Source of the DNA: Chiloscyllium plagiosum
Lineage: Eukaryota
DNA length: 64,000 nt
NCBI RefSeq assembly: GCF_004010195.1
Contig: NC_057718.1
Span: 57,303,023 to 57,367,022 of the forward strand
Reading direction: 5' to 3'
Shown here: positions 331 through 58,262 of the stretch, one piece after another
How positions within the stretch are numbered: the first letter of the stretch is position 1
Layout: every line of letters begins with the position of its first letter
Notes under the pieces: model-generated
Told to the model about the DNA's origin: nothing
Databases searched by the model: none
The model's input: the letters and a program-made list of their open reading frames with translations, nothing else
Made by a program: the position numbers and the translations under genes

Positions 331-871
331 GGGGAGAACATGATGACTGGAGATCAGAGTCAAGAGTGTGGTTATTTATCTGTCAGTCCACAAGCCTCAT
401 TCCTGATGAAGGGCTTATGTCCGAAATGTTGATTCTCCTGCTCCTTGGATGTTGTCTGATCTGTTGTGCTTTTCCAGCACCACACTCTCGATTCTGATCT
501 ACAGCATCTGCAGTCCTCACCTTCTCCTAGTTGATTTCAACCTGGCTGCGAAGTCTCTTCCAAGGATGCCTATCTTGAAGAAGTTCTCCTACTCTCTCTC
601 TACAAGGATGCGAGTGAGTCTCTCTGTCACTGCACCTCCCTCACCTCCTTCCCCCCAAACCCTCGGTCATCTCCTCTGCCCTGAACCTCTTCAGCCACGT
701 CCTAAATCAGACTCACTATCATAACCACACCTCCTTCCTCAATGCCTGCCTACGGAACCGACTGATCCCATATGGACTCCATTCCTGATGAAGGGCTTAT
801 ACCCAAAAAGTTGATTCTCCTGCTCCTTGGATGCTGCCTGATGTACTGTGCTTTTCCAGCACCTCACACAA
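331..871 (+). mobile_element. Penelope-like (Neptune-type) mini-element: short inverted pLTR stub, pLTR, about 250 bp internal sequence, second pLTR
   Basis: Two direct copies of attcctgatgaagggcttat...gattctcctgctccttggatg (399-527 and 781-868); flanked by caaaaa(c/t)ttaat at 319-330 and 872-883. Confidence 0.75.
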
Positions 872-1467
872 CAAAAATTTAATAGTGCACGCATTCCATA
901 AAAACAAGAGCAAACACTAATTCAAATCCCAAAAATGAAAATTTCAAAATTGTAGGTGCCAAAATTGCAACATACTACATACTTTTCTAGGAATTTTGAA
1001 GCTTTGAGCCTCAGATTTTCATTCTATATATACCATTAATAACTGGCAGTGTACACAAAGTTTGCCAGCTATAATAACTTGAGTTTCCCTTGAGTAAGTG
1101 ACAGTATTTTGAAAATTAGGATTGGGGCAAGAGGAAGATGACAGGCAAAAGTGCTAGTATTAGCAAGGGATTTCACACTGGTGAGTTAGATAATCACAGC
1201 TTTGAAGCATGCAAAATGATGCATGTCTGGATCAAATTTTAAGATACTCGGAGGAGCCGTCATTTGTGTCACTAATAACTGTCGTCAAACAGCAAGGTCT
1301 TTTAAAATTAAAAGAACGTTTAATGGGGATAATATTGATAAGTTAATGAGGCCCTTAGTCTTTTGAGTGGCATTAGGTTAAATTTAATGTTGTTTTCTAT
1401 AAGATTTGATTGCTGCATTTTTGTAGTGGCCTCTCCCCATGCCTCTCATTCCCTGTCTCACCACTTG

Positions 1468-1690
1468 GGAGAAAGCGAGGACTGCAGATGCTGGAGATCA
1501 TAATTGAAAAGTGTGGCGCTAGAAAAGCACATCAGGTCAGACAGCATCCAAGGAGCAGGTGAGTTGATGCTTTGGGCATAAGCTCTTCAGCAGGGATGTG
1601 ACAAGCGCTAATGCCCAAAACATCGACTCTCCTGCTCCTTGGATGCTGCCTGACCTGCCATGCGTTTCCAGTGCCACACTTTTCGATCCT
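1468..1690. mobile_element. Fold-back (inverted pLTR) PLE mini-element, decayed
   Basis: Left arm ...aaaagcacatcaggtcagacagcatccaaggagcagg is the reverse complement of the right arm cctgctccttggatgctgcctgacctg...; TSD tctcac(c/t)acttg at 1456-1467 and 1691-1702. Confidence 0.8.
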
Positions 1691-2732
1691 TCTCACTACT
1701 TGCCCCTCTTAGATTTGTGCTCCCTTTCAAGATCCAGGTAAGATTCAAAGCTGTAGAATTCCCAGCTGGGCATGTATAGTCCATGTTTTTAAAACAAAAA
1801 ATTCAAAGTTGATCCTGTCTCAATGCTCTTCTTCTGAATCCTTACTAACAGCAAGTAGGAGCATTTGAAAAAAATGGATTGTAAACCCTCCCGCTCAGCA
1901 CTTCTAAAGTTTTAGGATTCAAACCTCCGCAACACTGGAGCTTTGCCTCCAGAACAGATAACCAGGAAGGAATTGGCAAGTGTGAAAACCACCGAGTGGA
2001 AGATTTAGAAAGAAGATGGGTTGGGGTAAGAGGGAATGGTATGTAGCAACCAGGTGGATAAGGCAAGTTCAGGAAACAGGATTTTCTACAAACAGAAGAT
2101 ATTGTAGCAAGAACTTTCATTTTTCCTCAATGCTTTCAAAATTTTTAAAAAGGTATTCCATTTGCCAGTACAGCTGTGTGAAATATTTCAATACAAGATG
2201 GTATAATGTTTTAATATTTATTTTTTCTACAAGTAAGAATCTACAGAATATAGAGTTTTAACAGTGAATCTCAATTTTAACTGAGGACTTTTATTGCATT
2301 GATAATTATGTGGAACCATCCTTCAATGCAAAGCATAGGAAATTCTGCCATGGAGGCTATATAAATCCTGTGTATACTAATTCACTTTCTGCTGTCAAAC
2401 TAATAATTTGGTGGTTTGATTATATTGCTAGTCATTTACAGTTATCTTTATGTTGGAAGTAACGCATTTGTATGTGGTTTTATGGTGATGAAAAGTGTCC
2501 TTGAAATTACACCCATGAGGGTGGGAATGATGAAATAGAAAATGATGCAAGTTCACCATCTATCAAATCACTGGATGTTTTTAACATGAGCATTTCTCAC
2601 CCAGGATTTTTATTAAGAGGACAGTAAATTTTCAAGGTATACCACAATAGACTATTGTGACAGCATAATCCAAGTCTGATAGCTAAATGCAATAACAACA
2701 GTCTGAATAGGGATGCAGATTGTCACAAGCTG

Positions 2733-3254
2733 CATCCCAATTCTGGTTTCCTTCCTATCGGAAAGATGTTATGAAACTTGAAAGGGTTCAGAAAAGATTT
2801 ACAAGGATGTTGCCAGGGTTGGAGGATCTGAGCTACAGGAAGAGGCTGAACAGGCTGGGGCTGTTTTCCCTGGAACATCTGTGGCTGAGGGGTGACCTTA
2901 TAGAAGTTTACAAAATTATGAGGGGCATGGATAGGATAAATAGACAAAGTCTTTTCCCTGGCATTGGGGATTTCCAGAACTAGAGGGCATAGTTTTAGGG
3001 TGAGAGGGGAAAGATATAAAAGAGACCTAAGGGGCAACTTTTTCACGCAGAGGGCGGCACGTGTATGGAATGAGCTGCATGAGGAAATGGTGGAGGTTGG
3101 TACAATTGCAACATTTAAGAGGCATTTGGATGGGTATATGAATAGGAAGGGTTTGGAGGGATATGGGCCAGGTGCTGGCAGGTGGGACTAGATTGGGTTG
3201 GGATATCTGGTTGGCATGGATCTGTTTCCATGCTGTACATCTCTATGACTCTAT
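2733..3254 (+). mobile_element. CR1 LINE 3' fragment
   Basis: QFW..YRKDVMKLERVQKRFTRMLPGLEDLSY...LRGDLIEVYKIMRG; RTRGHSFRV...NFFTQR; ends in ctctatgactctat tail. Confidence 0.9.
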
Positions 3255-6200
3255 AAGTGGTCTTAAAATTTGAATGGATTATAACTTGAATATTAGTGAA
3301 ATAAACTCTGAATCTGTTTTGGAATCTATTGTTCTTCATGCAGAGAAGTTTGAGTATGGCAGGGGTCCTCTTGTGATGGAGTCATAGTGTATCTACCCCT
3401 TGACTGAGGTGTCTGGGTAAAACCCCATCTGTTTTAGAGGTGTGCAGTAATTTCTCTGAACAGGTTGATTAGAAAAATAAAAAGGGAGTAGAAATAAAAT
3501 CAAAAGCAGAGGGAATGAAGCTTCTTCTTGGACAAGTCTCAGTTACCAAACAGGACTTTTTAATGCAACACAGGTAACGGTCTTGACTAACTGCTCAATG
3601 TGCACCCACAAATGTAAGATCTTCTGTGCAAACATTTAACACCTAGTAAGGAATATCTTTTTCCCCTCAACTTGGAACAAAATATACCTTTTGCCAAACG
3701 TGTGAATATCCAAGTCCAGAAAAGAGGTCAAACTCAATGAATTACAAATTCCGTGTAAAGGTCCACAGAGTGATAGGTAAAGATACAGAATCACATTTGA
3801 GGGGACAGTTAAAAAAGAAATTTCCCTGAAACTTTCCAACCTGTCTTGGCTAAAGTAGCACCTCAGGTAGGACTATATTGATGGATAATATTAAAAGTAC
3901 ATGTGAATTCATGCACTTGTCAACTATTTGCAAAAGAAAGAGTCTTTTGAATGTTTGTAAACAGAAAGCTTAAGTTAAATTTTCAATTTCCACACTGGAC
4001 TTCTATTCATAAAATCCAGCACCCCATATATTTATTAAACTTTCTGAACCTGCCTTGCTACTAATAAATTGGTGCATTTTCATCCTCGGGTTTTGCTACT
4101 TATGCAATCCCTTCGGAACTGTGTCTTTTATTTTATGTTGCCGCTCCCCATTCTTATTACCAAAATATACCACATCACATTCCTCTGCATTAACTTACAT
4201 GTGAAATGGGTCCACTCTATCCATCATCCTGACTATATCCAAATTTTGAAACTGCATCTAGGGTATTAATATATATATACTTATATTATGTATATTACAT
4301 ATAGTGGTCTTAGTATCAATACCTTGGTACTCTTTCCTCCAGTCCAAAATACAATCGTTGACCACTACTGTAACTCAGGTAAACCGAAATCCTCGCTGCC
4401 ATTTTTCCCTTTTATTCCATGGTTTCAACATTTTAAGTATTATTGTTCAGTTTAGACAAGCAAATGCATCATTCCTCATTATTTGCAGCACTGTTTCAGA
4501 TATTTTTTTCAAGATCAAACAATACCACAGAAGACTTGTTTACTTCTTCGAGAAGACATGTTTATAACAAAACTTCAGACAGACTTTATTCAATCAACAT
4601 ACATCTACCATGAGACTACTGTTATTGCATTTAGCCAAACTTGCTATCGCAGTCAGCTTTTGTAGCATACCTTACAATTAAAATATACTGTCCTCTTAAA
4701 AAGAAATAAAAAATCCTGGGTAAAAAATGCTCACTTTATAACATCCTATGATTTAATATATGAGCAATTTGCTTCCTTTTCTATTTCACCACTCCCACCC
4801 ATGGACGTAATTTCAAGGACACTTTGAAATAAAGTCACCACCCATAAATGCAACACTTTCTTCATAAACATAACTAAATGACTTAACAATATAACCAAAC
4901 TGCCAAATTACTAGCTTGACTACAGAAAGTGAATTAGCATGCACAAAACTGACTACATGGCAGAGTTCTCAAAGGAGCATAGGAACAGTCTGCCATACAA
5001 GTAGTTACGAAGATTGTGAAATCAAGATTGCATATCATAAAACTTATAACAGGAATACAATTTACAATCCATCTAGCTAGAACGGCACAGCAAGGTTAAG
5101 AACTGCATAACTTAAGTCTATTTTATACAAGGCTCTGAAGATGATAGCATTGGTAATGATGAGTTATGTACAATAGGAGACAAACTACAATTGGATTGTT
5201 GTAAAGTGTCCTACACATCTTATCAAAAGGTCACTAAAGGAGGAGATTCGAATGCTGTTTTATTACGATTACATTAAGGTGACAGCATACCTTCTAAATG
5301 AGAAACTTTAAAAAACAGATCTACATTCACTAAATGGGAGATTAAAAGGAAAAGAAGTGTTCAAAATGAGCTGTGTTATTTCCACTGTCAATGAATGGCC
5401 AACAAGAGGATTGAAAATTCAGTAGCTATTACAGTTAATCACAACAAGTCAACAAGGAATTAATACCTCCCAAACTTCACAAATAAGAAGCATGCTTTGA
5501 TAAGAATTGGAAAATGTGATTAGAGTAGGTGACATGGGGACAGCAATAACATTGGGGACAAACCAACTAAACATTCTTTTAAAAGAAAGTTCGGAATGTA
5601 ACCAAGTTTTTGAAAGCATTTTGTTGACAACTCTTGTGTACACTGAGGTTTCTATGCCAACACATAAACAAAAGTGGTCTGAGGCGAAAACATACTCCAT
5701 CGGTTGTGTGAATTAAATATGCAGTGGACAGAGAGAAAAGAGGTCCTTGCAAGAGTAGTGTAGTCTCATTACAATGAGTAGTATATATATATAAAAAAAA
5801 GTACTGGAATAACCAGCTTTAGCAAACAACCAACTATTAACAGTTGAATTTGACTGAAAACAGTGAATTCAGATCAATTCTTTTTAGTTTGTGTTTTTTT
5901 TGAAAAAGATATGAGAACTCCACTGAAACACATTTTTAAAAACCAAAAGATAAAAGATGGAACAAAAATCGACTGCACAGTTGAACTTGCTACCATTATG
6001 TTGAGACTAATTTTGAAATTTAATATTAAATAATGGTTAACTTTTTTGGTTAAAGGATTTACATAAATTAAGCAGTTGCATCCTAATTGCAAACAGCTCA
6101 GCAATCCGATTACTAGTGGTCTACTCAAGAGGGTAGGCTCAATCTTCATGTTATCTTCTCCAATTGTAATACAATCTGGCAATCTTGAACAAACAAGAAC

Positions 6201-8643: not shown

Positions 8644-8652
8644 AACCAGTTA

Positions 8653-8805
<153 letters not shown>

Positions 8806-10643: not shown

Positions 10644-10870
10644 AGGTAAAAACAATGACTGCAGATGCTGGAAACCAGATTCTGGATCAGTGGTGCTGGA
10701 AGAGCACAGCAATTCAGGCAGCATCCGAGGACAGGCAAAATCGACGTTTCGGGCTAAAGCCCTTCATCAGGAATAAAACCTGATGAAGGGCTTTTGCCCG
10801 AAACATCGATTTTGCTTGTCCTCGGATGCTGCCTGAATTGCTGTGCTCTTCCAGCACCACTGATCCAGAA
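10644..10870. mobile_element. Fold-back PLE mini-element with a hammerhead motif in each arm
   Basis: 10681-10771 is near-perfectly complementary to 10779-10870 with a loop of only a few nt. Confidence 0.9.
10739..10774 (-). ncRNA. Minimal type I hammerhead ribozyme, family A, intact core
   Basis: AUUC CUGAUGA A GGGC UUUA GCCC GAAAC GUC/GAUU. Confidence 0.8.
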
Positions 10871-12260: not shown

Positions 12261-12575
12261 GGGTAATATGTGTTTTGGCTGAATGACAATCTCTAAACCT
12301 ATTGCTGTACTCTTGCCATTTTTGCAACAAAATACCTCTGTGAGCGAGCATTTTCAACATTCATTTACATGAAAAATAACAGGAGGGAGAAATTGTCAGT
12401 GGAACAAAATCTGTGGATATGGCTCTCTCATCAAATCCTCCCCAGATCAAAAATTCTGCACATTGACAGGCCCAGGTTTCCCACTAACTCAGTGAAGAAG
12501 GCATACAAGATATTTGTGCTGAAAATGTGTTGCTGGAAAAGCGCAGCAGGTCAGGCAGCATCCAAGGAACAGAAG

Positions 12576-12611
12576 AATCGACGTTTCGGGCATAAGCCCT
12601 TCTTCAGGAAT
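12576..12611 (-). ncRNA. Minimal type I hammerhead ribozyme, family A, intact core
   Basis: AUUC CUGAAGA A GGGC UUAU GCCC GAAAC GUC/GAUU. Confidence 0.8.
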
Positions 12612-12807
12612 GAGGAAAGTGTGTCCAGCAGGCTAAGATAAAAGGTAGGGAAGAGGGACTTGGGGGAGGGGCGTTGGAAATGCGATAGGTGGAAGGAGGT
12701 CGAGGTGAGGAAGAAGATTGCAGGTTAGGAAGGTGGTGCTGAGTATGAAGGATTTGATTGAGAGAAGGTGGGGGGAGGGGAAATGAGGAAACTGGAGAAA
12801 TCTGAGT

Positions 12808-13615
12808 NNNNNNNNNNNNNNNNNNNNNNNNNNNNNNNNNNNNNNNNNNNNNNNNNNNNNNNNNNNNNNNNNNNNNNNNNNNNNNNNNNNNNNNNNNNNN
12901 NNNNNNNNNNNNNNNNNNNNNNNNNNNNNNNNNNNNNNNNNNNNNNNNNNNNNNNNNNNNNNNNNNNNNNNNNNNNNNNNNNNNNNNNNNNNNNNNNNNN
13001 NNNNNNNNNNNNNNNNNNNNNNNNNNNNNNNNNNNNNNNNNNNNNNNNNNNNNNNNNNNNNNNNNNNNNNNNNNNNNNNNNNNNNNNNNNNNNNNNNNNN
13101 NNNNNNNNNNNNNNNNNNNNNNNNNNNNNNNNNNNNNNNNNNNNNNNNNNNNNNNNNNNNNNNNNNNNNNNNNNNNNNNNNNNNNNNNNNNNNNNNNNNN
13201 NNNNNNNNNNNNNNNNNNNNNNNNNNNNNNNNNNNNNNNNNNNNNNNNNNNNNNNNNNNNNNNNNNNNNNNNNNNNNNNNNNNNNNNNNNNNNNNNNNNN
13301 NNNNNNNNNNNNNNNNNNNNNNNNNNNNNNNNNNNNNNNNNNNNNNNNNNNNNNNNNNNNNNNNNNNNNNNNNNNNNNNNNNNNNNNNNNNNNNNNNNNN
13401 NNNNNNNNNNNNNNNNNNNNNNNNNNNNNNNNNNNNNNNNNNNNNNNNNNNNNNNNNNNNNNNNNNNNNNNNNNNNNNNNNNNNNNNNNNNNNNNNNNNN
13501 NNNNNNNNNNNNNNNNNNNNNNNNNNNNNNNNNNNNNNNNNNNNNNNNNNNNNNNNNNNNNNNNNNNNNNNNNNNNNNNNNNNNNNNNNNNNNNNNNNNN
13601 NNNNNNNNNNNNNNN
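12808..13615. other. Assembly gap (808 N)
   Basis: Run of N. Confidence 1.
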
Positions 13616-14057
13616 CCAGACCATAGCAACACGATGGTTGGAGGAAGAGCGTCTCATCTTCCACCTAGGAACCCTCCAACCACAAGAGATGAACTCAGAT
13701 TTCTCCAGTTTCCTCATTTCTCCTCCCCCCACCTTGTCTCAGTCAAATCCCTCGAACTCAGCACCGCCTTCCTAACCTGCAATTTTCTTCCTGACCTCTC
13801 CGCCCCCATCCCACTCCGGCCTATCAACCTCACCTTGACCTCCTTCCACCTATCGCATTTCCAATGCCCCTTCCCCAAGTCCCTCCTCCCTACCTTTTAT
13901 CTTAGCCTGCTGGACACACTTTCCTCATTCCTGAAGAAGGGCTTATGCCTGAAACATCGATTCTCCTGTTCCTTGGATGCTGCCTGACCTGCTGCGCTTT
14001 TCCAGCAACACATTTTCAGCTCTGATCTCCAGCATCTGCAGTCCTTACTTTCTCCTC

Positions 14058-20639: not shown

Positions 20640-20878
20640 CAAACAGAATATTGGAGAAGCTTAGCAAGTTTGGCAGCATCTGTGGAGAAAGATAGTTAAC
20701 ATTTCGAATCCAGTATGGTTGTCATCAGTTCTTCCGCTGAAAAACTCTTCAGTTCTGAAGTCATACCAGAATCAAAATGCCAGTTGTCTTTCTCTCTTCA
20801 CTAATACTGCCAGAACTGCTAAGTTTCTCCAGCATTCTCAGTGTTTATTTGTTTCAGATTTCAAACATCCATTCTGCT
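20640..20878. repeat. Old degenerate fold-back element related to the PLE mini-elements
   Basis: agaatattggagaagcttagcaagtttggcagcatc pairs with atactgccagaactgctaagtttctccagcattct. Confidence 0.6.
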
Positions 20879-22879: not shown

Positions 22880-23003
22880 CTAGATAAAAGTTAAAGTTAT
22901 ACAGTCAATGTTGTTACATAAAACATTACATAAATTAAGTGAACTTCGTCAGGGCTCGAACAAATTTAGCTAGAACAAATTTAGAATAAACAAGTTGTTC
23001 ACT

Positions 23004-23826
23004 GCAAACAATGACTGCAGATACTGGAAACCAGATTCTGGATTAGTGGTGCTGGAAGAGCACAGCAGTTCAGGCAGCACCCGAGGAGCAGAAACAAAAA
23101 AAAAGAAAAAAAAAAAAGAAAAATCAATGTTTTGGGCAAAAGCCCTTCATCAAGAATGAGGCTGGGAGCTTCAGGGGTGGAGAGATAAATGGGAGGGGGG
23201 AGGTGAGGCTGGTGAGAAAGTAGCTGAGTGTGCAGTAGGTGGATGGAGATGGGGGTGAAGATGATAGCTTGGAGAGGAGAGTGGAGTGGATAGGTGGGAA
23301 GTAAAATTGACAGGTGGGACAGGTAATGAGGACGGTGCTGAGCTGGAAGGTTGGAACTGGGGTAAGGTGGGGGGAGGGGAAATGAGGAAACTGGTAAAGT
23401 CCACATTGATGACATGGGGTTGAAGAGTCCCAAGGCAAAAGAGGAGGCGTTCTTCCTCCAGACGTCAGGTGGTGAGGGAGTGGCGGTGGAGGCAGCCCAG
23501 GACCTGCATGTCCTTGGCAGAGTGGGAGGGGGAGTTGAAATGTTTGGCCACAGGGCAGTGGGGTTGATTGGTGCAGGTGTCCCAGAGTTGTTCCCTAAAC
23601 GGTCTGCAAGAAGGCGTCCAGCCTCCCCAATATAGACGAGACCGCATCTGGAGCAACGGATACAATAAATGACATTGGTGTAAGAAAAAGGAAGAAACAG
23701 AAGGCTTGGAGGCCCAGTTCATGGCGGATGGAAGTGTAGAGGGGCTGGATGTCCATGGTGAAGATGAGGCATTGGGGGCCGGGGAAACAGAAGTCTTGGA
23801 GGAAGTGGAGGGCGTGAGTGGTGTCA
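23004..23826 (-). mobile_element. Neptune-type PLE, internally deleted (short RT piece fused to GIY-YIG endonuclease and pLTR)
   Basis: RT piece (FTMDIQPLYTSIRHE), YCIRCSRCGLVYIGE, PVAKHFNSPSHSAKDMQVLG, decayed hammerhead at about 23122-23157. Confidence 0.85.
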
Positions 23827-24082
23827 ACTTAGTAACGGTCACTAATGGAGCATAGATACCTATTTACTAATTACATGTATTATATGCATGATGGATGGTT
23901 TCACTGGTCATAGGTCCACTGTTAGCATTAATGCTCTGGGAAATGGAAGTGGAAATTCTTATTTCTTTGTTAAGAGGTCACCTTTTGCAACAGAGTTGCC
24001 AAAAACACAAACAAACAAATACACACAGTTTAGAGGCTCAGCTCTACTTCGTATGAAGTATGACTTGCTTTGATGTATTTAC

Positions 24083-24635: not shown

Positions 24636-24869
24636 GGAGAAAGTGAGGGCTGCAGATGCTGGAGACCAGAGCTGAAAATGTGTTGCTGGAAAAGCGCAGC
24701 AGGTCAGGCAGCATCCAAGGAACAGGAGAATCAGCATTTCGGGCATAAGCCCTTTTTCAGGAATGATGAAGGAATGATTCCTGAAGAAGGGCTTATGCCC
24801 GAAACGTCGATTCTCCTGTTCCTTGGATGCTGCCTGACCTGCTGTGCTTTTCCAGCAACACATTTTCAG
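24636..24869. mobile_element. Fold-back PLE mini-element with perfect 14 bp TSD
   Basis: About 95 bp inverted arms; ctagttatccagaa at 24622-24635 and 24870-24883. Confidence 0.92.
24777..24812 (+). ncRNA. Minimal type I hammerhead ribozyme, family A, intact core
   Basis: AUUC CUGAAGA A GGGC UUAU GCCC GAAAC GUC/GAUU. Confidence 0.8.
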
Positions 24870-24956: not shown

Positions 24957-25742
24957 TGGAGAAAGTGAGGACTGCAGATGCTGGAGATCAGAGCTGAAAA
25001 TTGTGTTGCTGGAAAAGCGCAGGTCAGGCAGCATCCAAGGAGCAGGAGAATCAACGTTTCGGGTATAAGCCCTTCTTCAGGAATGATGAAGGTGTGCCAA
25101 GCAGGCTAAGATAAAAGGTAGGGAGGCCCCAAGGGATCCTTCCATATCCGTCACAAATTCACCTGCACCTCCACATACATCATTTACTGCATCCGCTGCA
25201 CCCGATGTGGCCTCCTCTACATTGGGGAGACAGGCCGCCTACTTGCGGAATGTTTCAGAGAACATCTCTGGGACACCCAGACCAACCAACCAACCGCCCC
25301 GTGGCTGAACACTAACTCCCCCTCCCACTCTGCCAAGGACATGCAGGTCCTTGGCCTCCTCCATCGCCAGACCATGGCAACACGATCCTGGAGGAAGAGC
25401 GCCTCATCTTCCGTCTAAAAACCCTCCAACCACAAGGGATGAATGCAGATTTCTCCAGCTTCCTCATTTCCTCTCCCCCCACCTTATCTCAGTCCCAACC
25501 CTCGGACTCAGCACCACCTTCTTGACCAGCAATCTTCTTCCCGACCTCTCCGCCCACACCCCCTCTCCGGCCTATCACCCTCACCTTAACCTCCTTCACC
25601 TATCGCATTCCCAACGCCCGTCCCTACCTTCTATCTTAGCCTGCTTGGCACACTTTCCTCATTATGCCCGAAACGTCGATTCTCCTTCTCCTTGGATAAT
25701 GTCTGACCTGCTGCACTTTTTCAGCAACACATTTTTCAGCTC
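24957..25742 (+). mobile_element. 5'-truncated Neptune-type PLE: inverted pLTR arm + GIY-YIG endonuclease + pLTR
   Basis: From 25125: GPKGSFHIRHKFTCTSTYIIYCIRCTRCGLLYIGETGRLLAECFREH; TSD tgcaaataac at 24944-24953 and 25743-25752. Confidence 0.9.
25049..25084 (-). ncRNA. Hammerhead motif, family A, core intact with GUU site and shortened stem II
   Basis: AUUC CUGAAGA A GGG CUUAUA CCC GAAAC GUU/GAUU. Confidence 0.65.
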
Positions 25743-32663: not shown

Positions 32664-34043
32664 GTTACTGCCTTTGCTGTTTGAATTCACATATCGCTGG
32701 ACACCAGAGCGCATGTGGGAAAATTAACACAGTCAAATACACAACTGATTTTGGAGGAACTGGTGGGCGAAGTTCACAACACAGAATCAGATAAGTTAAT
32801 CGTTATTTTAAGTGTGGCCTACAGAGAATCTACAGTAGTGAGTAGAGTGGGTTCTTTCTTGATTTTTTTTGGAGAGATGTCTCGTGATTAAAAACTTAAA
32901 ATATAAGCCATAACTATTAATTTAACCCGGGGCAGTGGTTGTAGAGGAATAAGACGGTCTTATTTTCTAGGTCTGTAGATTGTGAAAGATGGCATTTAAT
33001 AGAGTGATATGTACTTCTTGTCAGATGTGGGAGTTTAAAGAGAGTTTAAGGGTTACTGCGGATTATATCTGCCATAAATGCTGTTGGCTGTGAAACTTAT
33101 CAGATCGAATGGATCGATTGGAGAGACAGTTAGAAGCAATGAGGAATGTGCAACAGCAACAGTATGTGATGGATGGCAGTTATAGGAAGTGTGTGGGGGC
33201 GGGGGGAAGTCTCAGATACAGTTAAATAGATGGGTTAACTCCAGGAAAAGAAAGAGGTAAGCGCCTAGTGCAGGAGTCTTTTGTGGATATACCCATTTCA
33301 AATAGGTATGCTGTTTTGGAAAATGTAGGGGGTGATGGGTTCTCAGAGGAACATAGCACGAACAATCAAGTTTCTGAAATGGAGATTGGATCTAATGCAA
33401 TGAGGGATACATCGGGTTGCAAGAGATCAATTGTGTTAGGGGATTCTCTATTCCAAGGGACAGACAGACGCTTCTGTGGTCAGTAGCGAAAAATCAGAAT
33501 GGTGTGTTGCTTCCCTGGTGCCAGGATCTAGGACATCTCAGAGGGTGCAGAATGTTCTCACGGCGGAGAGGGGCCAGCTAGACGTCATTGTCCACATTGG
33601 AACAAATGACATAGGAAGAAAAAAAAAGGTTGAGATTCTGAAGGGAGATTACAGAGAGTTAGGCAGAAATTTAAAAAGGAGGTCCTTGAGAGTAGTAATA
33701 TCTGGATTAATCCTGGTGCTACGAGCTAGTGAGGGCAGGAATAGGATGAGAGAGCAGATGAATGCTTGGCCGAGGAGCTGGTGCATGGGAGAAGGATTCA
33801 CATTTTTGGATCATTGGAATCTCTTTTGGGTAGAATTGACCTGTACAAGAATGACAGATTGTACCTAAATTGGTAGGTGACTAATATACTTGCAGGGAAA
33901 GGGAAATTTGCTAGAGCTGCTAGGGAGGATTTAAACTAGTAAGGTGCGGGGGTGGGACCCAGGGAGATATTGAGGAAAGAGATCAATCTGAGACTGGTAC
34001 AGTTGAGAACAGAAGCGACTCAAAACAGTCAGTCAGTTCAGGC

Positions 34044-34303
34044 AGGGACAAGATAGGACTAATAAATTAAACTGCATTTATTTCAATGCAAGGGGCCTAA
34101 CAGGGAAGGCAGATGAACTCAGGGTATGGTTAGGGACTTGGGACTGGGATATCATAGCAATGACAGAAACATGAGGGACAAGATAGGACTAATAAATTAA
34201 ACTGCATTTATTTCAATGCAAGGGGCCTAACAGGGAAGGCAGATGAACTCAGCGTATGGTTAGGGACTTGGGACTGGGATATCATAGCAATGACAGAAAC
34301 ATG
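34044..34303 (+). repeat. 130 bp tandem duplication within the CR1 endonuclease start
   Basis: 34044-34173 repeated at 34174-34303 with one visible mismatch. Confidence 0.9.
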
Positions 34304-34780
34304 GCTCAGGGATGGGCAGGACTGGCAGCTTAATGTTCCAGGATACAAATAAAGGAAGGATAGAAAGCGAGGCAAGAGAGGAGGGGGAGTGGCATTTTTG
34401 CAAAGGGATAGCATTACAGCTGTGCTGAGGGAGGATATTCCCAGAAATACTTCCAGGAAGTTATTTGGGTGAAACTGAGATAAGAAAGGGATGATCACCT
34501 TATTGGGATTATATTATAGACCCCCTAATAGTAAGCGGGAAATTGAGATACAAACTTGTAAGGAGATCTCAGCTATCTGTAAGAATAATAGGGTGGTTAT
34601 GGTAGGGAATTTTAACTTTCCAAACATAAACTGGGACTGCCATAGTGTTAAGGGTTTAGATGGAGAGGAATTTGTTAAGTGTGTACAAAACAATTTTCTG
34701 ATTCAGCATGTGGATGTACCTACTAGAGAAGGTGCAAAACTTGACCTACTCTTGGGAAATAAGGCAGGGCAGGTGACTGA

Positions 34781-34976
34781 NNNNNNNNNNNNNNNNNNNN
34801 NNNNNNNNNNNNNNNNNNNNNNNNNNNNNNNNNNNNNNNNNNNNNNNNNNNNNNNNNNNNNNNNNNNNNNNNNNNNNNNNNNNNNNNNNNNNNNNNNNNN
34901 NNNNNNNNNNNNNNNNNNNNNNNNNNNNNNNNNNNNNNNNNNNNNNNNNNNNNNNNNNNNNNNNNNNNNNNNNNNN
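34781..34976. other. Assembly gap (196 N)
   Basis: Run of N. Confidence 1.
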
Positions 34977-36612
34977 TGTAGGGAAATAGATGGTGACATC
35001 TTGAAAATGTCCATATGACAGAGGAGGAAGTGCTGGATGTCTTGAAATGGGTAAAGGTGGATAAATCCCCAGGACCTAATCAGGTGTACCAAAGAACTCT
35101 GTGGGAAGCTAGAGAAGTGATTGCTGGGCCGCTTGCTGAGATATTTGTATCATCGATCGCCACAGATGAGGTGCCGGAAGACTGGAGGTTGGCTAACATG
35201 GTGTCACTGTTTAAGAAGGGTGGTAAGGACAAGCCAGGGAACTATAGACCAGTGAGCCTGACGTCAGTGGTGGGCAAGTTGGTGGAGGGAATCCTGAGGG
35301 ACAGGATGCACATGTATTTGGAAAGGCAAGGACTGATTCGGGATAGTCAACATGGCTGTGTGTGTGGGAAATCATGTCTCACAAACTTGATTGAGTTTTT
35401 TGAGGAAGTAACAAAGAGGAGTGAGGAGGGCAGAGTGGTAGATGTGATCTATGTGGACTTCAGTCAGGCGTTCGACATGGTTCCCCATGGGAGACTGATT
35501 ACCAAGGTTAGATCTCATGGAATACAGGGAGAACTAGCCATTTGGATACAGAACTGGCTCAAAAGGTAGAAGACAGAGGGTGGTGGAGGGCTGTTTTTCA
35601 GACTGGAGGCCTGCGACAAGTGGAGTGCCACAAGGATCGGTGCTGGGTCCTCTACTTTTTGTCATTTACATAAATGATTTGGATGTGAGCAAAAGAGATA
35701 CAGTTAGTAAGTTTGCAGATGATTTCAAAAGTGGAGGTGTAGTGGACAGCGAAGAGGGTTACCTCAGAATATAACAGGGTCTTGGTCAGATAGGCCAATG
35801 GGCTGAGAAGTGGCAGATGGAGTTTAAATTCAGATAAATGCGAGGTGCTGCATTTTGGGAAAGCAAATCTTAGCAGGACTTATACACGTAATGGTAAGGT
35901 CCTAGGGAATGTTGCTGAACAAAGAGACCTTGGAGTGCAGGTTCATAGCTCCTTGTAAGTAGAGTTCAGTTAGATAGGATGGTGAAGACGGTGTTTGGTA
36001 TGCTTTCCTTTATTGGTCAGAATATTGAGTACAGGTGTTGAGAGGTCATGATGCGGCTGTACAGGACATTGGTTAGGCCACTGTTGGAATATTGTGTGCA
36101 ATTCTGGTCTCCTTCCTATCAGAAAGATGTTGTGAAACTTGAAAGGGTTCAGAAAAAGATTTACAAAGATGTTGCCAAGGTTGGAGGATTTGAGCTATAG
36201 GGAGAGGCTGAACAGGGCTGTTTTCCCTGAAGCTTTGAGGCGGAGGGGTGACCTTATAGAGGTTTACAAAATTATGAGGGGCATGGATAGGGTAAATAGG
36301 CAAAGTCTTTTCCTTGGGTTCAGGGAGTCCAGAACTAGAGGGCATAGGTTTAGGGTGAGAGGGGAAAGATGTAAAAAGAGACATGCGGGGCAATTTTCTC
36401 ACGCAGAGGGTGGTATGGAATGAGCTGCCAGAGGAAGTGGTGGAGGCTGGTACAATTACAGCATTTAAAAGGCATTTGGATGGATATATGAATAGGAAGG
36501 GTTTGGAGGGATATGGGCTGGGTGCTGGCAGGTGGGACTAGATTGGGTTGGGATATGTGGTCGGCATGGACCGAAGGGTCTGTTTCCATGCTGTACATCT
36601 CTATGACTCTAT

Positions 36613-38888: not shown

Positions 38889-39932
38889 CTGAAAAATATA
38901 CATAAATGCATTTCCTGAATTGAATCCAATAAATAACATGCAAAAATCAGATGAAAACAAGTAGATGTTTCTTGGATTGAAAATAAAATCAACAAAACAA
39001 TTTTGGAAGGAAACAAGTTATCTATTTTTAGATAATGACTGCCTTCACCAAGTCTAATAGCAAAGAAAGGATATAGAGTTTTAGCTGCATTCTGACCATC
39101 TTTCTCCATTTGAGCCTTTGTTAAAAGGTATAAAACCTACAAGTATTGATGTTCAGAGACACTTGGGTGCACTTCTAAAAGGAATTCAGAAAGTTAACAT
39201 TTCACAGCGCTCTATTATTAAATTCACTGCCTTCACCAAATCTAAATCTAAACTGGGAGGGATCAATTCGTAGTCTTTCAGGGAATTAAGGAGATTAAAG
39301 TGTAGGTGGGAAATTGGAGTTGAAGCTCAAGATTAGTCATGATTGTACTGAATGATGGCGCTCATGAATCCTGTTCCTATTTCTTGTATTCAGCTATCTG
39401 CCTGTGATGCAGGTGATTGAAGGTGTAGTCTACACTGAAGCTGCCCATTATTGCGGAGAGCAGTACTGCTCTTTGCACAAAGCAGATGCATATGCCATAC
39501 AGTACCATGGTAATGTTCGCATTGACATGCTTCATCAGGTTTAAACCTCTCTGGAGAAATTAGAGATAATTAAAAATATCAAAAGAATTAGAAATAAACT
39601 TATTAGTGTATAACACAACATTGGAATTATATATGCTTCAATATATTCAGAAACTGAAGTAATTGATGTGTAACTAACATCTGACTGTGCCTTTTTGCGC
39701 TTTTTAAAATTACAGATGGAAATGGGAAAGAACGGATTTAAAACCAATGTTTTAAATGATTGCTGCATTTTGGAAAACCAAGTAACCTGGCACTCATGCA
39801 AACAAGCGTTTGAATATGAAGTAACTGAAGTGGTTGCAGATGAATTAGAGCAGAGGGGTCCTGTGTACAGAGACAGAGAGGGGGTGTTTATTACGGGATT
39901 AGAGTTATGGTATTATATGCTAATAGTTTAGA

Positions 39933-40838
39933 AAGTTTGCAGATGACACCAAAATTGGAGGTGTAGTGGACAGTGAAGAAGGTTACCTCAAATTACAACG
40001 GGATCTTGATCAGATGGGCCAATGGGCTGAGAAGTGGCAGATGGAGTTTAATTTAGATAAACGTGAGGTGCTGCATTTTGGGAAAGCAAATCTTAGCAGG
40101 ACTTATACACTTAATGGTAAGATCCTTGGGAGTGTTGCTGAATAAAGAAACCTTGGAGTGCAGGTTCATAGCTCCTTGAAAGTGGAGTCGCAGGTAGATG
40201 GTTAGTGAAGGTGGTGTTTGGTATGCTTTCCTTTATTGGTCAGAGTATGGAGTACAGAAGTTAGGAGGTCATGTTGCGGCTGTACAGGACGTTGGAATAT
40301 TGCGTGCAATTCTAGTCTCCTTCCTATTGGAAACATGTTGTGAAACTTGAAAGGGTTCAGAAAAGATTTAGAAGGATGTTGCCAGGATTGGAGGATTTGA
40401 GCTATCAGAAGAGATTGAATAGGCTAGGGCTGTTTTCCCTGGAGCGTCAGGGGCTGAAAGATGATCTTCCAGAGGTTTATAAAATCATGAGGGGCATGGA
40501 TAGGATAAATAGACAAAGTCTTTTCCCTGGGGTCAGGGAGTCCAGAACTAGAGGGCATAGGTTTAGGGTGAGAGGGGAAAGATATAAAAGAGACCTACGG
40601 GGCAACTTTTTCACGCAGACAGTGGTACGTGTATGGAATGAGCTGCCAGAGAAAGTGGTGGAAGCTAGTACAATTACAGCATTTAAAAGGCATTTGGATG
40701 GGTATATTAATAGGAAGGATTTGGAGGGATATGAGCCAGGTGCTGGCAGGTGGCACTAGATTGGGTTGGGATATCTGGTCGGCATGGACAAATTGGATCA
40801 AAGGGTCTGTTTCCATGCTGTATATCTCTATGACTCTA
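39933..40838 (+). mobile_element. CR1 3' fragment from FADD to tail
   Basis: KFADDTKIGG...KLERVQKRFRRMLPGL...ctctatgactctat. Confidence 0.92.
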
Positions 40839-41219
40839 TTAGCACTTGTGATAAATAGTAATCTTATTATGTACAGAAACCTGGCTTATGCTTTCTATCA
40901 ATCTGGATCTGAAAATCAGGTGAATTCTCAGTGAGACATGATAAAAGTGAAAAAAAAACATGCATTTTAGATATCAGTGACTACGTGTTTTAGACTTCTG
41001 TTCAAAAGTTTAAGAATAATAAAGCATTCTTCGTGGAAGCATACTTTGACCACCAAAAAGGATTATTAAAAAATATTATAGTTAAATATAATTTTGTAGG
41101 TGAAGTAGTAATCTTTTAAAATTATACTGAAAAGAATTCTAGCACAGTTTCCAAACATACTTACAGATAATAAAGCAGCACACGTAATTCTGTACTGAAA
41201 GAGAGAGTTATAAACATAC

Positions 41220-42417: not shown

Positions 42418-42721
42418 ATGAAATATATTAATAAGACAGTAAAAGACTTCATGAGGATGCAGATAGATAAATGACAGCTTTGGTTCAGCAACAGAGTTGT
42501 CATCTTGGAACCAGAAGCCTGTACATGAGTTCTAGGATGATATTTCAATTCAGATCTGAGGAAGTATTTTGCTGCCGGACAAGATAGTATACTGATATCT
42601 CAAAGGCATATAAAATATTGCATGTCATTCTTTGAAAAGCAACAAGGATGTTTTCTTCAGTCACATAATTAATATTTATCCCTGAATCATAATCACTCCA
42701 TACCCCTGGTGTTAAAGCTCA

Positions 42722-44833
42722 TTGTTGTTGTGGTTCTGTTCGCCGAGCTAGGAATTTGTGTTGCAGACGTTTTGTCTCCTGTCTCGGTGACATCCTCAGT
42801 ACTTGGGAGCCTCCTGTGAAGCGCTTCTGTGATGTTTCCTCTGGCATTTGTAGTGGTTTGTCTCTTATAAATGCCAGAGGAAACATCACAGAAGCGCTTC
42901 ACAGGAGGCTCCCAAGCACTGAGGATGTCACCTAGACAGGGGACGAAACGTCTGCAACACAAATTCCCAGCTCGGTGAACAGAACCACAATGAGCACCCG
43001 AGCTACAAATCTTCTCACAAACTTTGAAGACCTATGGACAAGAGACGCTAAGACAAGCCAGGAAATGGGAATCCTGTGCCAACCGCCTAAGCGCCACATA
43101 CGAACAACTTCGGTTCCTGCACGAATGCAGAAAGAATCGAATCCTTCCACCATGTGTCAGATACAGACCACCAGTCAGCAACCCACAAGCCAGAGAGACA
43201 GCCAGACACAACAGGTTCAGGATGACCCAGGTAATGATTACAAACGCACACACCAGACTACACAAATACAGACAAGAAATTGCGCGCCAAAAGTCGTTAA
43301 TTTCAAAAACCACAAATCAATCAAGAATGGACCCGGGCCATAGAACAGGCTGTCACCATAGGACAGACCAGGACCACACACTGGAAAAAAACGGCACTAA
43401 AAGAAAAAAATGGCCAAACTAACACACAACAGAGAGGACACCACAACTCATACCTGGGTTAGAAACCTCTCCCACAGACAGCTCACAGACACAGAAGGAA
43501 CAATACTGGCCAAGGGACTCAACTATAACCACAGGGATGCCAAGACAGCAGACTTCCAAGCAGCACTAGAATGCACACTCAAACAATGGACTGACAGAAG
43601 AGACACAACAAATAGTGAGACAAAGTATCGTACCCCTGATAACAAGGAAAAGACAAACACAATCTCAATACCAAGGAGAGGGAAGCACTAAAAACACTAA
43701 GAAATAAGAACATAATCATACTACCAGCAAAGGCAGAATGACGGTCATCCTGGACAAAGCAGAGTACATCGAGAAAGCACAACAACTACTTGAAGATACC
43801 AACACCTACCAAAAGAGAGAGTTTGACCCCACCCCACAGCTCACCAATAGGATAAACAACACACTGAGGAACCTGCAAAAAAAAAACGGACAGAAAACCA
43901 GGTTTGACCTACAGAGAATGAAACCTGAAAGCAACACCACCCCCAGATTCTATGGACTACCTAAAGTGAACAAACCAGACATCCCACTCAGACCCATCGT
44001 ATCGCTACCAGGGACATCATCACACAAACTTGCTAAAGACCTATAACAGAAACTGAAACACCTGATCAGCGGATCCAGACACTCTATACAGACAACACTG
44101 GAATTCTTGGACATCAGAAATATACATTAGACAAGGAAGAAACTATGGTCTCATTCGATGTAACGGCACTGTTCACCTCTATCGACAAAACCCTAGCCAG
44201 AGAAACAATAGCCAACCTGCTGGACGTACAGAACAGACAAGACGGGGAACCTATCAACAAAGCCTGCATACTCAAACTACTGGACCTGTGCCTCACAACA
44301 CACTTTACATTCAACAACCAAATATATGAACAAATCAACGGCACACCCATGGGCTCACCCATCTCTGGACTCATAGCAGAAGCTGTAATGCAAAGATTAG
44401 AACAAACAGTCTTACCGCAAATTCAACCCAAACTCTGGGTCAGATATATAGATGATACCTTTGTAATAATTAAAAACACAAATAGAAAACACACACCGGA
44501 TCATCAAGCCACACTCACAGGAATCCGATTCACTAGAGAAGAAGAAAAGGACAACCAACTCCCATTCCTAGACGTGATGGTACAGAGAACACCGAACGGA
44601 GAATTCACCACAAAGGTATACAGGAAAGCCACACACACACACACAGACCAAGTCCTGAACAACAAACCACTATAAATGTCAGAGGAAACATCACAGAAGT
44701 GCTTCACAGGAGGCTCCCAAGCACTGAGGATGTCACCTAGACAGGGGACAAAACGTCTGCAACACAAATTCCCAGCTCGACGAACAGAATCACAACGAGC
44801 ACCTGAGCTACAAATCTTCTCACAAACTTTGAA
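42722..44833 (+). mobile_element. Penelope/Poseidon-type PLE: inverted pLTR, pLTR, frameshifted RT ORF, pLTR; endonuclease deleted
   Basis: PRFYGLPKVNKPDIPLRPIVS; SFDVTALFTSI; GTPMGSPISG; WVRYIDDTF; LPFLDV; pLTRs at about 42865-43028 and 44663-44833, inverted copy 42722-42860. Confidence 0.93.
42916..42955 (+). ncRNA. Minimal type I hammerhead ribozyme, family B, intact core
   Basis: GCA CUGAGGA U GUC-A-CCU AGAC AGG-G-GAC GAAAC GUC/UGC. Confidence 0.82.
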
Positions 44834-44917
44834 GCTCATTGTTGTTTGTGGGACTACATTTTTAGCACATTAGCTGCTGTTTTTCCCCACATTGCAACAA
44901 TGGCTATCCAAAGTTAA

Positions 44918-45072
44918 AAAAATCAGACAACACTAGGTTATAGTCCAACAGGTTTAATTGGAAGCACTAGGTTTTGGAGCACCACTCCTTCATCAGGTGG
45001 TTGTGGAGTACACAATTGTAAGGCACAGAATTTATAGCAAAGATTTACAGTGTGATGCAACTGAAATTATTG
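44918..45072 (-). mobile_element. PLE-like terminal repeat, family C, with inactive hammerhead at 44965-44999
   Basis: Homologous to 48145-48295; CAC CUGAUGA A GGAG..CUCC AAAA CC UA GUG. Confidence 0.7.
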
Positions 45073-48139: not shown

Positions 48140-48615
48140 AAGGTAAAAGTCACACAACACCTGGTTATAGTCCAACGGATTTATTTGGAAGCACTAGCTT
48201 TCGGAGTGCCGCTCCTTCATCAGGTGGTTGTGGAGTATAAGATCGTAAGACACAGAATTTATAGCAAAAGTTTACAGTGATGTAACTGAAATTCTATGTT
48301 GAAAAAGACCTGGATTATTTGTTAAATCTCTCATCTGTTAGAATGACCATGTTGGTTTCAGTTCTTGCATATGTAAATCACAAAACCTTTAAAGTTACAT
48401 TCTCAAGTGAACTTTAACAATTGGAGTCATGTCAGCCCAGATTAATGCATTGTAGGTGTGAGGTGCCCTGTGTGAGACTGTGTCACAATGGTCAGACTGA
48501 TTCTAAACTTTAAAAAAAAAACGGATTTACAGAATCTTACATAGATTCATGCAATTTTTGAGCAAGGTCAAATGTAATTCTGCAAGTACAAATTCACCCC
48601 ACAAACTTGTATGTT
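48140..48615 (-). mobile_element. PLE-like 3' region/terminal repeat, family C
   Basis: Ends (minus strand) hammerhead-gtgcttccaAATAAA..gttggactataaccaggtgttgtgtga; second copy at 44918-45072; no ORF evidence, so class is inferred. Confidence 0.65.
48192..48226 (-). ncRNA. Minimal type I hammerhead ribozyme, family C, intact core
   Basis: CAC CUGAUGA A GGAG CGGCA CUCC GAAAG CUA/GUG; palindromic AGCU stem III. Confidence 0.82.
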
Positions 48616-50641: not shown

Positions 50642-50678
50642 TTCATAGTGTAGCATAAAATTTTTTTCCTTCACTCCA
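50642..50678 (-). CDS. PNPT1: PNPT1 exon 15 equivalent
   Basis: 37 nt, (S)GVKEKNFMLHYE, cag|...|gtaagt. Confidence 0.94.
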
Positions 50679-51994: not shown

Positions 51995-52065
51995 CTTATA
52001 AGAGTGGTGATAAGATCTGTTTTTATACTTGATTCTATTGAATCAAAGGCTACTGTACAAAGAAC
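51995..52065 (-). CDS. PNPT1: PNPT1 exon 14 equivalent
   Basis: 71 nt, VLCTVAFDSIESSIKTDLITTLI(S), AG/GT. Confidence 0.94.
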
Positions 52066-52974: not shown

Positions 52975-53077
52975 CTGTGTCTGTCCCCTTTGAAATAGTG
53001 CAGAACCATGAAGAGGTTTATACATGTCGACTTCACAATTAATGTTTCTAAGAGATCTCAAATCTCTACCATCACAT
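52975..53077 (-). CDS. PNPT1: PNPT1 exon 13 equivalent (start of second RNase PH domain)
   Basis: 103 nt, (R)[38 protein letters not shown]. Confidence 0.97.
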
Positions 53078-56966: not shown

Positions 56967-57129
56967 ACAATCTGGGCAAGTGAACCATCCTTTTGTTTAA
57001 ATAACCTTTGAGAAAAAAAAACTAATGCAGGAATACAACATTATAACTTCCGTAAGAAACTGTCCTTTTGAACATTTTAAGGTTCAGTAAAAAGCCAACA
57101 ATCGAAACCAAAATGAAGAAATTTCTTAC

Positions 57130-57226
57130 CTTACATATTCATTCATAATAATATTTCTAAAAACATCTTTAGAAACTACATTAAATGCTTCCATTATTTC
57201 AAATGGCTCTGCCTCAGAAAATTTAT
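57130..57226 (-). CDS. PNPT1: PNPT1 exon 12 equivalent; earlier exons lie beyond the right edge
   Basis: 97 nt, (D)[31 protein letters not shown](R), tag|...|gtaaga. Confidence 0.94.
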
Positions 57227-57624
57227 CTAGAAGTGAAAATTAAACAAAGTATTATTTTTTCAAATAAAAGGGTCACATTATACATCAATTTAAGATGGAC
57301 ACTATTTAAGAAAGGCTAAAGAGGAAAATCAGAATTACAGACCAATTAGCTTAACATCTGTGGTGGGGAAACTGCTAGAGTCTATAGTCCAAGATGGGGT
57401 AACTGAACACCATGAAAAATTTCAGGTTATCAGGGAGAGCAAGCATGGAATCATGACTAGTAGGGTCATGCCTGAAAAACCTCATTGAATCTTTTGGAGG
57501 TGACTAAGATAGTGGACAGGAAAATATCTATGGATGTTGTTTATATGCACTTCCAAAAGGCATTTGATACAAGTTCCACACATGAGACTGTGAACTAAGG
57601 TAGAGTCAAAGAGTGCGATGCTGA

Positions 57625-57925
57625 ACCCAAGGGGGCTGAAATAAATGGGAGGGACGTGGGGGGGGGTGAGGAAGGAGGTAAGTGGGAATGCGATAGGTAG
57701 ATGAAGGTGGTGTGGGTTGATGGTGATAGATCAGAGCAGAGGGTGGAGCGGATAGGTGGGAAGGAAGATGGACAGGTAGGACAGTTCAAGAGGGTGGTGC
57801 TGAGTTGGAGGGTTGTATCTGGGATAAGGTGGAAGTGGGGAAATGGAGAAACTGGTGAAATCAACATTGATCCCATGTGGTTTGAGGGTCCCAAGGCAGA
57901 ATATGAGGGCATTCTTCCTCCAGGT
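57625..57925 (-). mobile_element. Neptune-type PLE 3' fragment
   Basis: Homologous to 23170-23460 (purine-rich on plus strand; end of GIY-YIG ORF). Confidence 0.75.
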
Positions 57926-58027
57926 TAACTAAAAGGTAGAAGCCCACAGAATTGAGGGCAAGTTACAGACATGGCTGGGAAATTGGTTGAGTGGCAGGTG
58001 ATATAAAGGAGGGATCAGGGGTAGGTA

Positions 58028-58262
58028 GTGAGGATTGGAGTGGTGCTGGGAAAGCACAGCAGGTCAGGCAGCATCAGAGGAGCAGGAAAACTGGTGTTTC
58101 AGGCAAAAGCCCTGCAGCAGGAATGAGGTAATTCCCGATGAAGGGCTTTTGCACGAAACATTGATTTTCCTGCTCCTCGAATGCTGCCTGACCTGCTATG
58201 CTTTTCCAGCACCACTCTAATCTAGACTCTAATTTCCAGCAACTGCAGTATTCACTTTCGCC
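58028..58262. mobile_element. Fold-back PLE mini-element, both hammerheads decayed
   Basis: Inverted arms 58037-58125 and 58130-58218; TSD aggggtaggta at 58017-58027 and 58266-58276. Confidence 0.85.

Follow-up and report, generated by a model that had tools for sequence, protein, structure and literature searches.

Penelope-like elements (PLEs) are known to carry minimal hammerhead ribozymes (min-HHRs), which the original description (Cervera and de la Pena 2014, PMC4209133) presents as type I motifs without helix III. A9 is followed by one additional nucleotide and a G10.1-C11.1 pair, helix I is short, helix II measures 4-7 bp, and the palindromic 15.2/16.2 is taken as a sign of dimers. PLE insertions, in the sections consulted of two accounts of their anatomy (PMC3846280, PMC8557442), include inverted 5'-truncated copies and have a 30-40-bp tail at one end only. 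A PLE of the Poseidon clade, PAc from Anolis carolinensis (Frangieh et al. 2024, PMC11167929), has its start codon at stem II and its ribozyme cut 26 nt after the ATG; each DNA strand is nicked and then extended, and reverse transcription begins at two internal sites, 111-118 nt into the frame. Here we describe motifs of the same kind in a stretch of 64,000 nt from the shark Chiloscyllium plagiosum (contig NC_057718.1, positions 57,303,023 to 57,367,022 of the forward strand), called the window below and numbered from its first base. The motifs fall into three families, A, B and C, and are very probably the end-modules of three endonuclease-bearing PLE lineages, each with a minimal type I hammerhead. 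As PLE min-HHRs are already known as a kind, the shark families add members to it.

Minimal hammerhead motifs of three families

A preliminary description of the window, made from the sequence itself, had claimed about 20 minimal hammerhead motifs between positions 399 and 58166, at a density of roughly one per 3 kb. Three family probes run by BLAST on the window gave 18, 3, and 2 matches for A, B, and C, respectively, and pairwise alignment to the intact copies reduced the matches to 21 hammerheads that can still be recognised (16 in family A, 3 in B, and 2 in C), the first starting at 399 and the last ending at 58169. Number, span and density (one motif per 3 kb) thus agree with that claim, and the six sites cited there, five as intact and one as nearly intact, are all present as described and belong to three families. 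The core and helices are unchanged in five of the 21 copies. Three of these belong to family A, at 10737-10774 (-; a subfamily with N7 = U and the loop UUUA), 12574-12611 (-), and 24776-24815 (+), one to family B at 42914-42959 (+), and one to family C at 48189-48228, within a stub at 48145-48293 (-) and with a predicted cut after CUA. The nearly intact family A copy at 25046-25084 (-) has lost the loop-closing pair of stem II and has U at C17, which is an allowed H. The remaining copies are still recognisable.

All three families share one order of parts, namely CUGANGA, one unpaired base after A9 (U in family B, A in the other two), a stem II closed by G-C, GAAA, a 4-nt palindrome (15.1-16.1), and H17. 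Stem II comprises 4 bp in families A and C and 7 positions with an internal A.G in family B, and its closing pair G10.1-C11.1 is G-C in A, C, and subfamily B1 of family B, and G.U in subfamily B2. Helix III is missing. The palindrome, ACGU in A and B and AGCU in C, could pair between copies, and the base at position 17 is C or A, with the predicted cut (GUC/G or CUA/G) directly after this base. The extra nucleotide, G10.1-C11.1, the palindromic 15.2/16.2, and the short helix I that PMC4209133 lists for min-HHRs are all present in A, B, and C. By their sequence, the motifs are minimal type I hammerheads of the PLE kind, and self-cleavage is predicted for them. In ViennaRNA predictions, the family A monomer forms both stems, I and II, and homodimers are more stable than two monomers by 3-8 kcal/mol; the pairings in these dimers differ from those of the canonical dimer, and we therefore place little weight on them.

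The core pattern alone is not beyond chance. Its loose form, CTGANGA-N6-30-GAAA, matches 12 times in the window versus 6.73 +/- 2.78 times in shuffled sequences, six of 100 of which reach 12, and four of the 12 matches (at 20702, 43864, 47181, and 55289) lie outside the families. A strict descriptor (optional extra nucleotide, a stem II with a closing G-C and no fewer than 4 uninterrupted pairs, GAAA, complementary 15.2/16.2, UH) finds four copies in the window versus none in each of 200 dinucleotide shuffles; family B is missed by this descriptor because of its internal A.G mismatch. Across the genome (3.56 Gb searched), the family-free core CUGANGA-N9-24-GAAACGUC occurs 138,187 times versus 529 times in the reversed control. 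Exact family-specific strings occur 33,157 times (28-mer of family A), 3,987 times (34-mer of family B), and 160 times (29-mer of family C), and a 24-mer from the family A tail occurs 90,147 times, each versus none in the control.

Among relatives of family B, sequence variation supports stems I and II by covariation. A relaxed family B-like pattern has 11,080 genome-wide matches (none in the control), the first 100 of which include 39 of subfamily B1, the window's type (stem II pair 3 C-G, N7 = G), and 24 of subfamily B2 (pair 3 U-A, pair 4 repaired to A-U, N7 = U). Twenty distinct variants from these 100 were aligned with the window copy, giving 21 relatives with a stem I of 3 bp and a stem II of 7 bp. 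In this alignment 90.5% of the paired cells are complementary versus 29-44% with the partners slid by 1-3 columns, and the covariation score is 0.254 versus 0.171 +/- 0.019, with none of 500 shuffles as high; both values are to be read with the rows having been picked as distinct types, some stem II columns being fixed by the pattern, and the rows being related by descent. Pair 3 of stem I is CG in 11 relatives, GC in four, UA in four, and UG in one, pair 3 of stem II is UG in ten, UA in six, and CG in three, and the stem II closing pair is GU in 12 and GC in nine. The covariation-like support claimed by the preliminary description is thereby put on a formal count, with three Watson-Crick states at stem I pair 3. 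Its claim that the stems differ between families and still pair holds with one correction, namely that stem I, at 2-3 contiguous bp in each family, makes no full helix. In family A, the first 100 core matches were compared by eye; recurrent variants differ at N7 and in loop II, and stem changes are mostly found in variants that occur once.

The altered copies in the window carry mostly CpG transitions (e.g. CCCGAAACGTC -> CCTGAAACATC), the pattern that would be expected of neutral decay, and most window copies are dead relics decaying at CpG sites. In family A, the copy at 10779-10813 (+) has a G to A change at 16.2, that at 13927-13965 (+) two CpG-type transitions, and that at 31696-31735 (+), decayed or partial, a G12 to A change. 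Further decayed family A copies are the first in the window (399-437, +), one in a longer frameshifted copy (23120-23150, -), and one in an inverted arm (24726-24764). Decayed or partial copies of this family also lie at 781-819 (+), 1561-1597 (-), 1601-1631 (+), 58086-58124 (-), and 58131-58169 (+), the last in the window, and only the 3' half is left at 25662-25684 (+). The second family C copy, in a stub at 44918-45068 (-), has a decayed hammerhead at 44962-45001 in which GAAA has become AAAA and AGCU has become ACCU. Outside the 21 copies, the loose match at 20702-20728 (-) reads CUGAUGA...GAAA and is followed by an A-like tail (...AGATGCTGCC); stem II pairing was not found in it, and it might be a degraded member of another PLE family.

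Carrier elements and their coding regions

Family B has one insertion in the window, an internally deleted one at 42730..44834 (+), flanked by a 13-bp target duplication (GCTCATTGTTGTT, 42717-42729 and 44835-44847). It begins with an inverted 5' arm (42730..42861, -) that has the short tail, reaching +39 after the cut site, and a hammerhead with a G12 to A change (42759-42804, -). Two direct terminal repeats (pLTRs) of 95% identity follow, the upstream one (42866..43029, +) holding the intact hammerhead and the downstream one (44671..44834, +) having the long tail, +77 after the cut site, and a hammerhead with a G12 to A change (44719-44764, +). Between them lies a reverse transcriptase (RT) remnant with a YIDDTF motif (44037..44675, +; RVT_1, expectation value (E) 3e-10). 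A fuller genomic copy, L007, has a single frame for the RT (RVT_1, E 1.4e-9) and a downstream GIY-YIG block (VVYKIPCKDCTKHYIGQTGR), and its hammerhead lies 280 nt after the stop of this RT/endonuclease frame. Compared to L007, the window copy lacks ~680 bp comprising the end of the RT, the linker, and the endonuclease. The first part of the frame in L007 reads N. Runs of N inside retroelement frames are found in the window (12808-13615), in L007 (2809-3731), in another genomic copy (L008, 967-4266), and in the 3' parts of the copies L119-L121; full-length PLE frames are therefore unreadable, and the long 'open frames' of the genome search are mostly N.

An ATG at 42925 coincides with the start of stem II in the intact family B hammerhead and opens a frame of 166 codons with two stops, and the downstream repeat ends 105 nt after its own ATG at 44730. 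The frame after this ATG is open over 22 codons in 20 of 22 family B copies. As a second frame is open in 19 of the 22, this openness is not discriminating, and the case for the start codon is made by the 166-codon frame with its two stops and by the likeness to PAc. In family A, an ATG in loop II opens only 26 codons.

Family A is linked to an endonuclease by a longer, frameshifted copy at 23000..23900 (-), which has a GIY-YIG block (NVIYCIRCSRCGLVYIGEAGR) at 23596-23688 and further endonuclease motifs (PVAKHFNSPSHSAKDMQVLG) in another frame, with the decayed hammerhead at 23120-23150 lying ~500 nt downstream of the block. This block aligns to that of family B at E 1e-06, and the window copy bears a weak resemblance to RT motifs (E 0.24). 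A genomic family A copy, L120, reaches 23.7 bits for GIY-YIG versus the Pfam cut-off of 22.6, and a protein collection search with its linker-endonuclease reading found 23 longer relatives; those closest among the named ones belong to sharks and rays, and one relative (P0009, 902 aa) contains both RVT_1 and GIY-YIG. An RVT_1 match upstream of family A sequence in L116 and L111 was considered as the PLE RT and rejected; it looks like a long interspersed nuclear element (LINE; motif NYRPVSLTSVVGxLL) that hosts a truncated PLE. For family C, two of five long genomic copies translated (L060 and L061) have an endonuclease frame (NVVYLIHCRRGCSEAWYIGETEQ ... GLNRDLGFMSHYR) that ends ~340 nt before the hammerhead; its endonuclease block was found by eye and aligns to that of family A by BLASTP at E 0.001. 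The block is of the C-x2-C-x2-C type in both A and C, with a Cys/His motif in the linker, a type that we take to be suggestive of the Neptune clade. Overall, the distance from the stop of the endonuclease frame to the hammerhead downstream is 170-340 nt.

The window copies of families A and C are solo 5'-truncated tails or head-to-head stubs. The idea of the preliminary description that the motifs are carried by PLE terminal repeats is supported by the GIY-YIG frame upstream of the motif in A, B, and C and by the RT in B; in the window, a true repeat pair is found only in family B. Two longer family A copies stand in inverted orientation around the N run of the window (12518..14056). The genomic locus L121 has a head-to-head arrangement of two family A endonuclease blocks (~2485-2589, -, and 3245-3349, +; ~650 bp apart), so long copies too form inverted pairs.

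Insertion ends and the proposed role of the hammerhead

Genomic copies, sampled in listing order for each family, have two alternative 3' ends. Among 43 hammerhead-anchored family A copies from 40 loci, these ends lie +58 to +69 after the cut site in 23, +95 to +105 in 17, and elsewhere in three, i.e. at about +62 or +99; 28 of the 43 start 1-6 nt before CUGA, and 25 have an inverted arm directly upstream. Family B copies (n = 22) end at about +40 (+39 to +42, n = 6) or +78 (+69 to +83, n = 15; other, n = 1), and family C copies (n = 21) at about +58 (n = 7) or +96 (n = 10; other, n = 4), with an inverted arm in 12 of the 21 family C copies. The two ends are ~37 nt apart, a difference that constitutes the "tail". 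A further family A sample was anchored on the tail 24-mer, avoiding the bias of the hammerhead anchor: of the first 62 of the 90,147 places, 61 were recovered (32 short, 27 long, and two other 3' ends), and 57 remained after dropping four truncated by N. In this sample, the start is no more than 9 nt from the first C of CUGA in 41 of the 57, further upstream in 11, and inside the motif or tail in five. Most family A copies measure 95-130 bp.

Paired copies are built from the same ends. Each of the ten palindromes in the tail-anchored sample has one long and one short arm, differing by 35-40 nt, and the first 100 family B places include 14 head-to-head (-,+) pairs and no tail-to-tail (+,-) pair. 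Target duplications of 8, 9, 10, 13, and 14 bp were found. In the window, the family A mini-insertion at 24636..24869 consists of an inverted arm (24636-24764) with a 37-nt longer tail and a direct arm (24776-24869), and is flanked on both sides by CTAGTTATCCAGAA; another family A palindrome is centred on 10737..10813, with arms spanning about 10658-10861. The insertion anatomy of PLEs, with a terminal repeat, an inverted 5' copy, a tail at one end, and a variable duplication, is thus present.

Near-perfect inverted arms are also a trait of foldback elements or miniature inverted-repeat DNA transposons (MITEs) and of microRNA-like hairpin genes, in which the hammerhead likeness would be incidental, and the palindromes do give Rfam microRNA-family matches of 33-43 bits. 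All of these are far below the gathering scores of 75-100, and such an origin is made highly improbable by the fixed inequality of the arms in ten of ten palindromes, by duplications that vary between 8 and 14 bp, by single-arm copies with the same two 3' ends, and by longer copies that continue into the endonuclease frame. The sub-threshold Rfam microRNA and small nucleolar RNA matches in the window were set aside as explained by the palindromes, or as noise. Head-to-head stubs that score as microRNA-precursor-like hairpins in this way lie at 42805-42913, 10734-10816, and 1547-1643, and perfect hairpins of this kind number tens of thousands genome-wide.

Non-LTR (long terminal repeat) retrozymes of animals were reportedly described by Cervera and de la Pena in 2020 (PMC7229834). 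In the parts consulted of a recent preprint (Li, Clavereau and Pollet 2026, bioRxiv 10.64898/2026.07.22.740005), such retrozymes are short non-coding units with type I hammerheads from PLE terminal regions and are reported as PLE derivatives of vertebrates, a cartilaginous fish among them. The short units of families A and C could likewise be a non-autonomous family, retrozymes or similar to short interspersed nuclear elements (SINEs), spread by tandem arrays and circular RNA, as might be suggested by the length of most family A copies and by the 41 of 57 that begin within 9 nt of the motif's first base. Retrozymes, however, form head-to-tail arrays giving circular RNAs, whereas the shark copies are dispersed singles or head-to-head pairs. 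Tandem Repeats Finder reports three rows in the window and no array at any hammerhead motif, and none of the 40 family A loci has two exact motifs in direct orientation, the three two-motif loci having them inverted. In addition, 3' ends and sequence are common to the short copies and to longer ones reaching into the endonuclease frame, and a copy beginning at the motif has no upstream region and hence no source of its own transcription. We therefore regard this origin as improbable and retain truncated copies of three PLE lineages as the explanation. One direct, tandem-like spacing was seen among the first 100 matches of the tail 24-mer, where two family A tails lie on the same strand 168 nt apart (G000:C1:1850098 and 1850266, in L031).

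Several results weigh against the assignment of the motifs to PLE lineages with hammerheads. A search with the Rfam hammerhead models, proposed as a check in the preliminary description, gave no match in the whole window (at the gathering score, or at E <= 10) or in slices of 65-76 nt around intact copies (24766-24830, 42900-42975, and 48175-48245; E <= 10), and the identification therefore relies on descriptor and context and not on a covariance model. Stem I has only 2-3 contiguous pairs in each family, and 15 of the 21 window copies have core or helix changes. As for the encoded proteins, the Pfam GIY-YIG model gives no match in the B or C readings and stays under its cut-off in five other family A readings (12.2-22.0 vs. 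22.6 bits), and no PLE-type RT was found in the fetched A or C copies, which were 5'-truncated or partly N (for family A, nine loci of one ten-locus set and four others). In the tail-anchored family A sample, no copy of the 57 has its start at the predicted cut site, and two start two bases past it. Finally, min-HHRs cleave poorly in vitro according to the parts consulted of PMC4209133, and the hammerhead of PAc is protein-dependent, can be dispensed with for insertion in vitro, and shows no RNA sequencing ends at the cut site (PMC11167929).

The unmatched Rfam models, the lack of starts at the cut site, the reluctant cleavage of known relatives, and the family B start codon inside the motif would all fit a protein-binding or translation-start RNA fold that has kept its hammerhead likeness without self-cleavage in vivo. 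This is unlikely, though to be taken seriously. In three lineages with unrelated flanks, the core of the catalytic pocket has been kept complete, with G12 and the UH in place, and the abundant subfamilies vary at N7, in loop II, and at compensated stem pairs, as expected of a working ribozyme. Moreover, the PAc hammerhead cuts with added protein, and its C3G/G8C rescue is catalysis-like (PMC11167929). A minimal hammerhead at the end of each PLE lineage thus remains the favored reading.

Because the anatomy matches the printed picture of PLEs, including PAc, the two 3' ends can be read as two RT start sites. By analogy with PAc, the element's protein would bind its own RNA just downstream of the hammerhead and nick both DNA strands, and reverse transcription would start at two internal sites of the RNA, leaving two alternative 3' ends, and proceed toward the RNA 5' end. 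Head-to-head pairs may result from priming on both nicked strands or from a strand switch, while the hammerhead might cut multi-unit transcripts as a dimer or with protein help. As neither end of the family A insertions lies at the cut site, cutting would not define the copied template. This suggests that the template's ends are not made by the hammerhead, which we infer to be a signal by which multi-unit transcripts are processed.

That so many family A copies begin at the first base of the motif would most simply indicate a transcript start there. A TATA-like CTTTTATCTTAG is found ~30 nt before the first base of the family A hammerhead, and the 95-130-bp mini-elements might, as a tentative proposal, be run-off copies of short transcripts from a promoter just upstream, reverse-transcribed from the internal sites. 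If so, longer relics with a 3' end would act as factories of dead stubs, which would explain a load on the 10^5 scale; the hammerhead would define neither RNA end and be kept for a different role, for example the release or translation of unit RNAs, and tens of thousands of perfect hairpin loci could feed small-RNA silencing. Two other possible marks of the stub start were rejected. A cap-derived extra 5' G, which would mark a transcription start, is not consistently present at the 5' junctions. In D. virilis, an intron ends at helix I; in the shark stubs, the only AG that could serve as a 3' splice site at the stub start falls inside the core and is missing from the CUGAUGA subfamily.

Besides PLE sequences, the window contains CR1-like LINE copies that are 85-93% alike (32798-36612 and 60116-64000, and also 39928-40842 and 2738-3257). 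One frame includes a GDSL-lipase/OSK-like domain (33440-33868), Exo_endo_phos_2 (34479-34780), and RVT_1 (34997-35569), and is interrupted by an N run at 34781-34976.

Comparison with known systems

Cartilaginous fish are not named in the text of PMC4209133 or in two of its supplement files (a third is not searchable), and one chondrichthyan was sampled for tandem retrozymes in the parts consulted of the 2026 preprint. Our literature search found no publication linking hammerheads with shark or ray PLEs, a point on which the preprint's supplements may bear, and for Penelope in elasmobranchs or Chiloscyllium, including the whale shark, it found only repeat inventories. With the families described here, cartilaginous-fish-type genomes join the hosts of PLE minimal hammerheads. 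As in the genomes covered by PMC4209133, several families coexist in one genome, mostly as solo truncated copies, and paired motifs lie on opposite strands 100-700 bp apart. The difference is one of scale: the 138,187 intact ACGUC-type cores found here compare with ~4,000 in the coelacanth and ~9,000 in Xenopus, a load (~138,000) far above the vertebrate counts consulted in that study.

The insertions also conform to the PLE anatomy in the consulted sections of Arkhipova et al. 2013 (PMC3846280) and Craig et al. 2021 (PMC8557442), in that an inverted arm lies immediately upstream, only one arm bears a tail, target duplications vary, and 5' truncation is extensive. In contrast to these accounts, where such clustering is not described in the sections consulted, the truncation point of family A is non-random. 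The copies thus constitute a large natural record of PLE insertion. Knowledge of the kind is unchanged by them, and the genome is a convenient one for testing PLE hammerheads.

The closest parallels are with PAc (PMC11167929). The family B start codon lies at the start of stem II with the predicted cut 27 nt later (26 nt in PAc), family B insertions end ~105 nt into the frame, near the PAc RT start sites at 111-118 nt, the shark families have two alternative 3' ends 35-40 nt apart, and priming on both strands, as in PAc, would explain the head-to-head arms. Differences are that the shark families are known here from sequence alone and that families A and C have another type of endonuclease block. 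Taken together, the pair of alternative 3' ends, the consistent pairing of a long with a short arm, and the lack of starts at the cut site agree with the picture of PLE insertion obtained for PAc in vitro.

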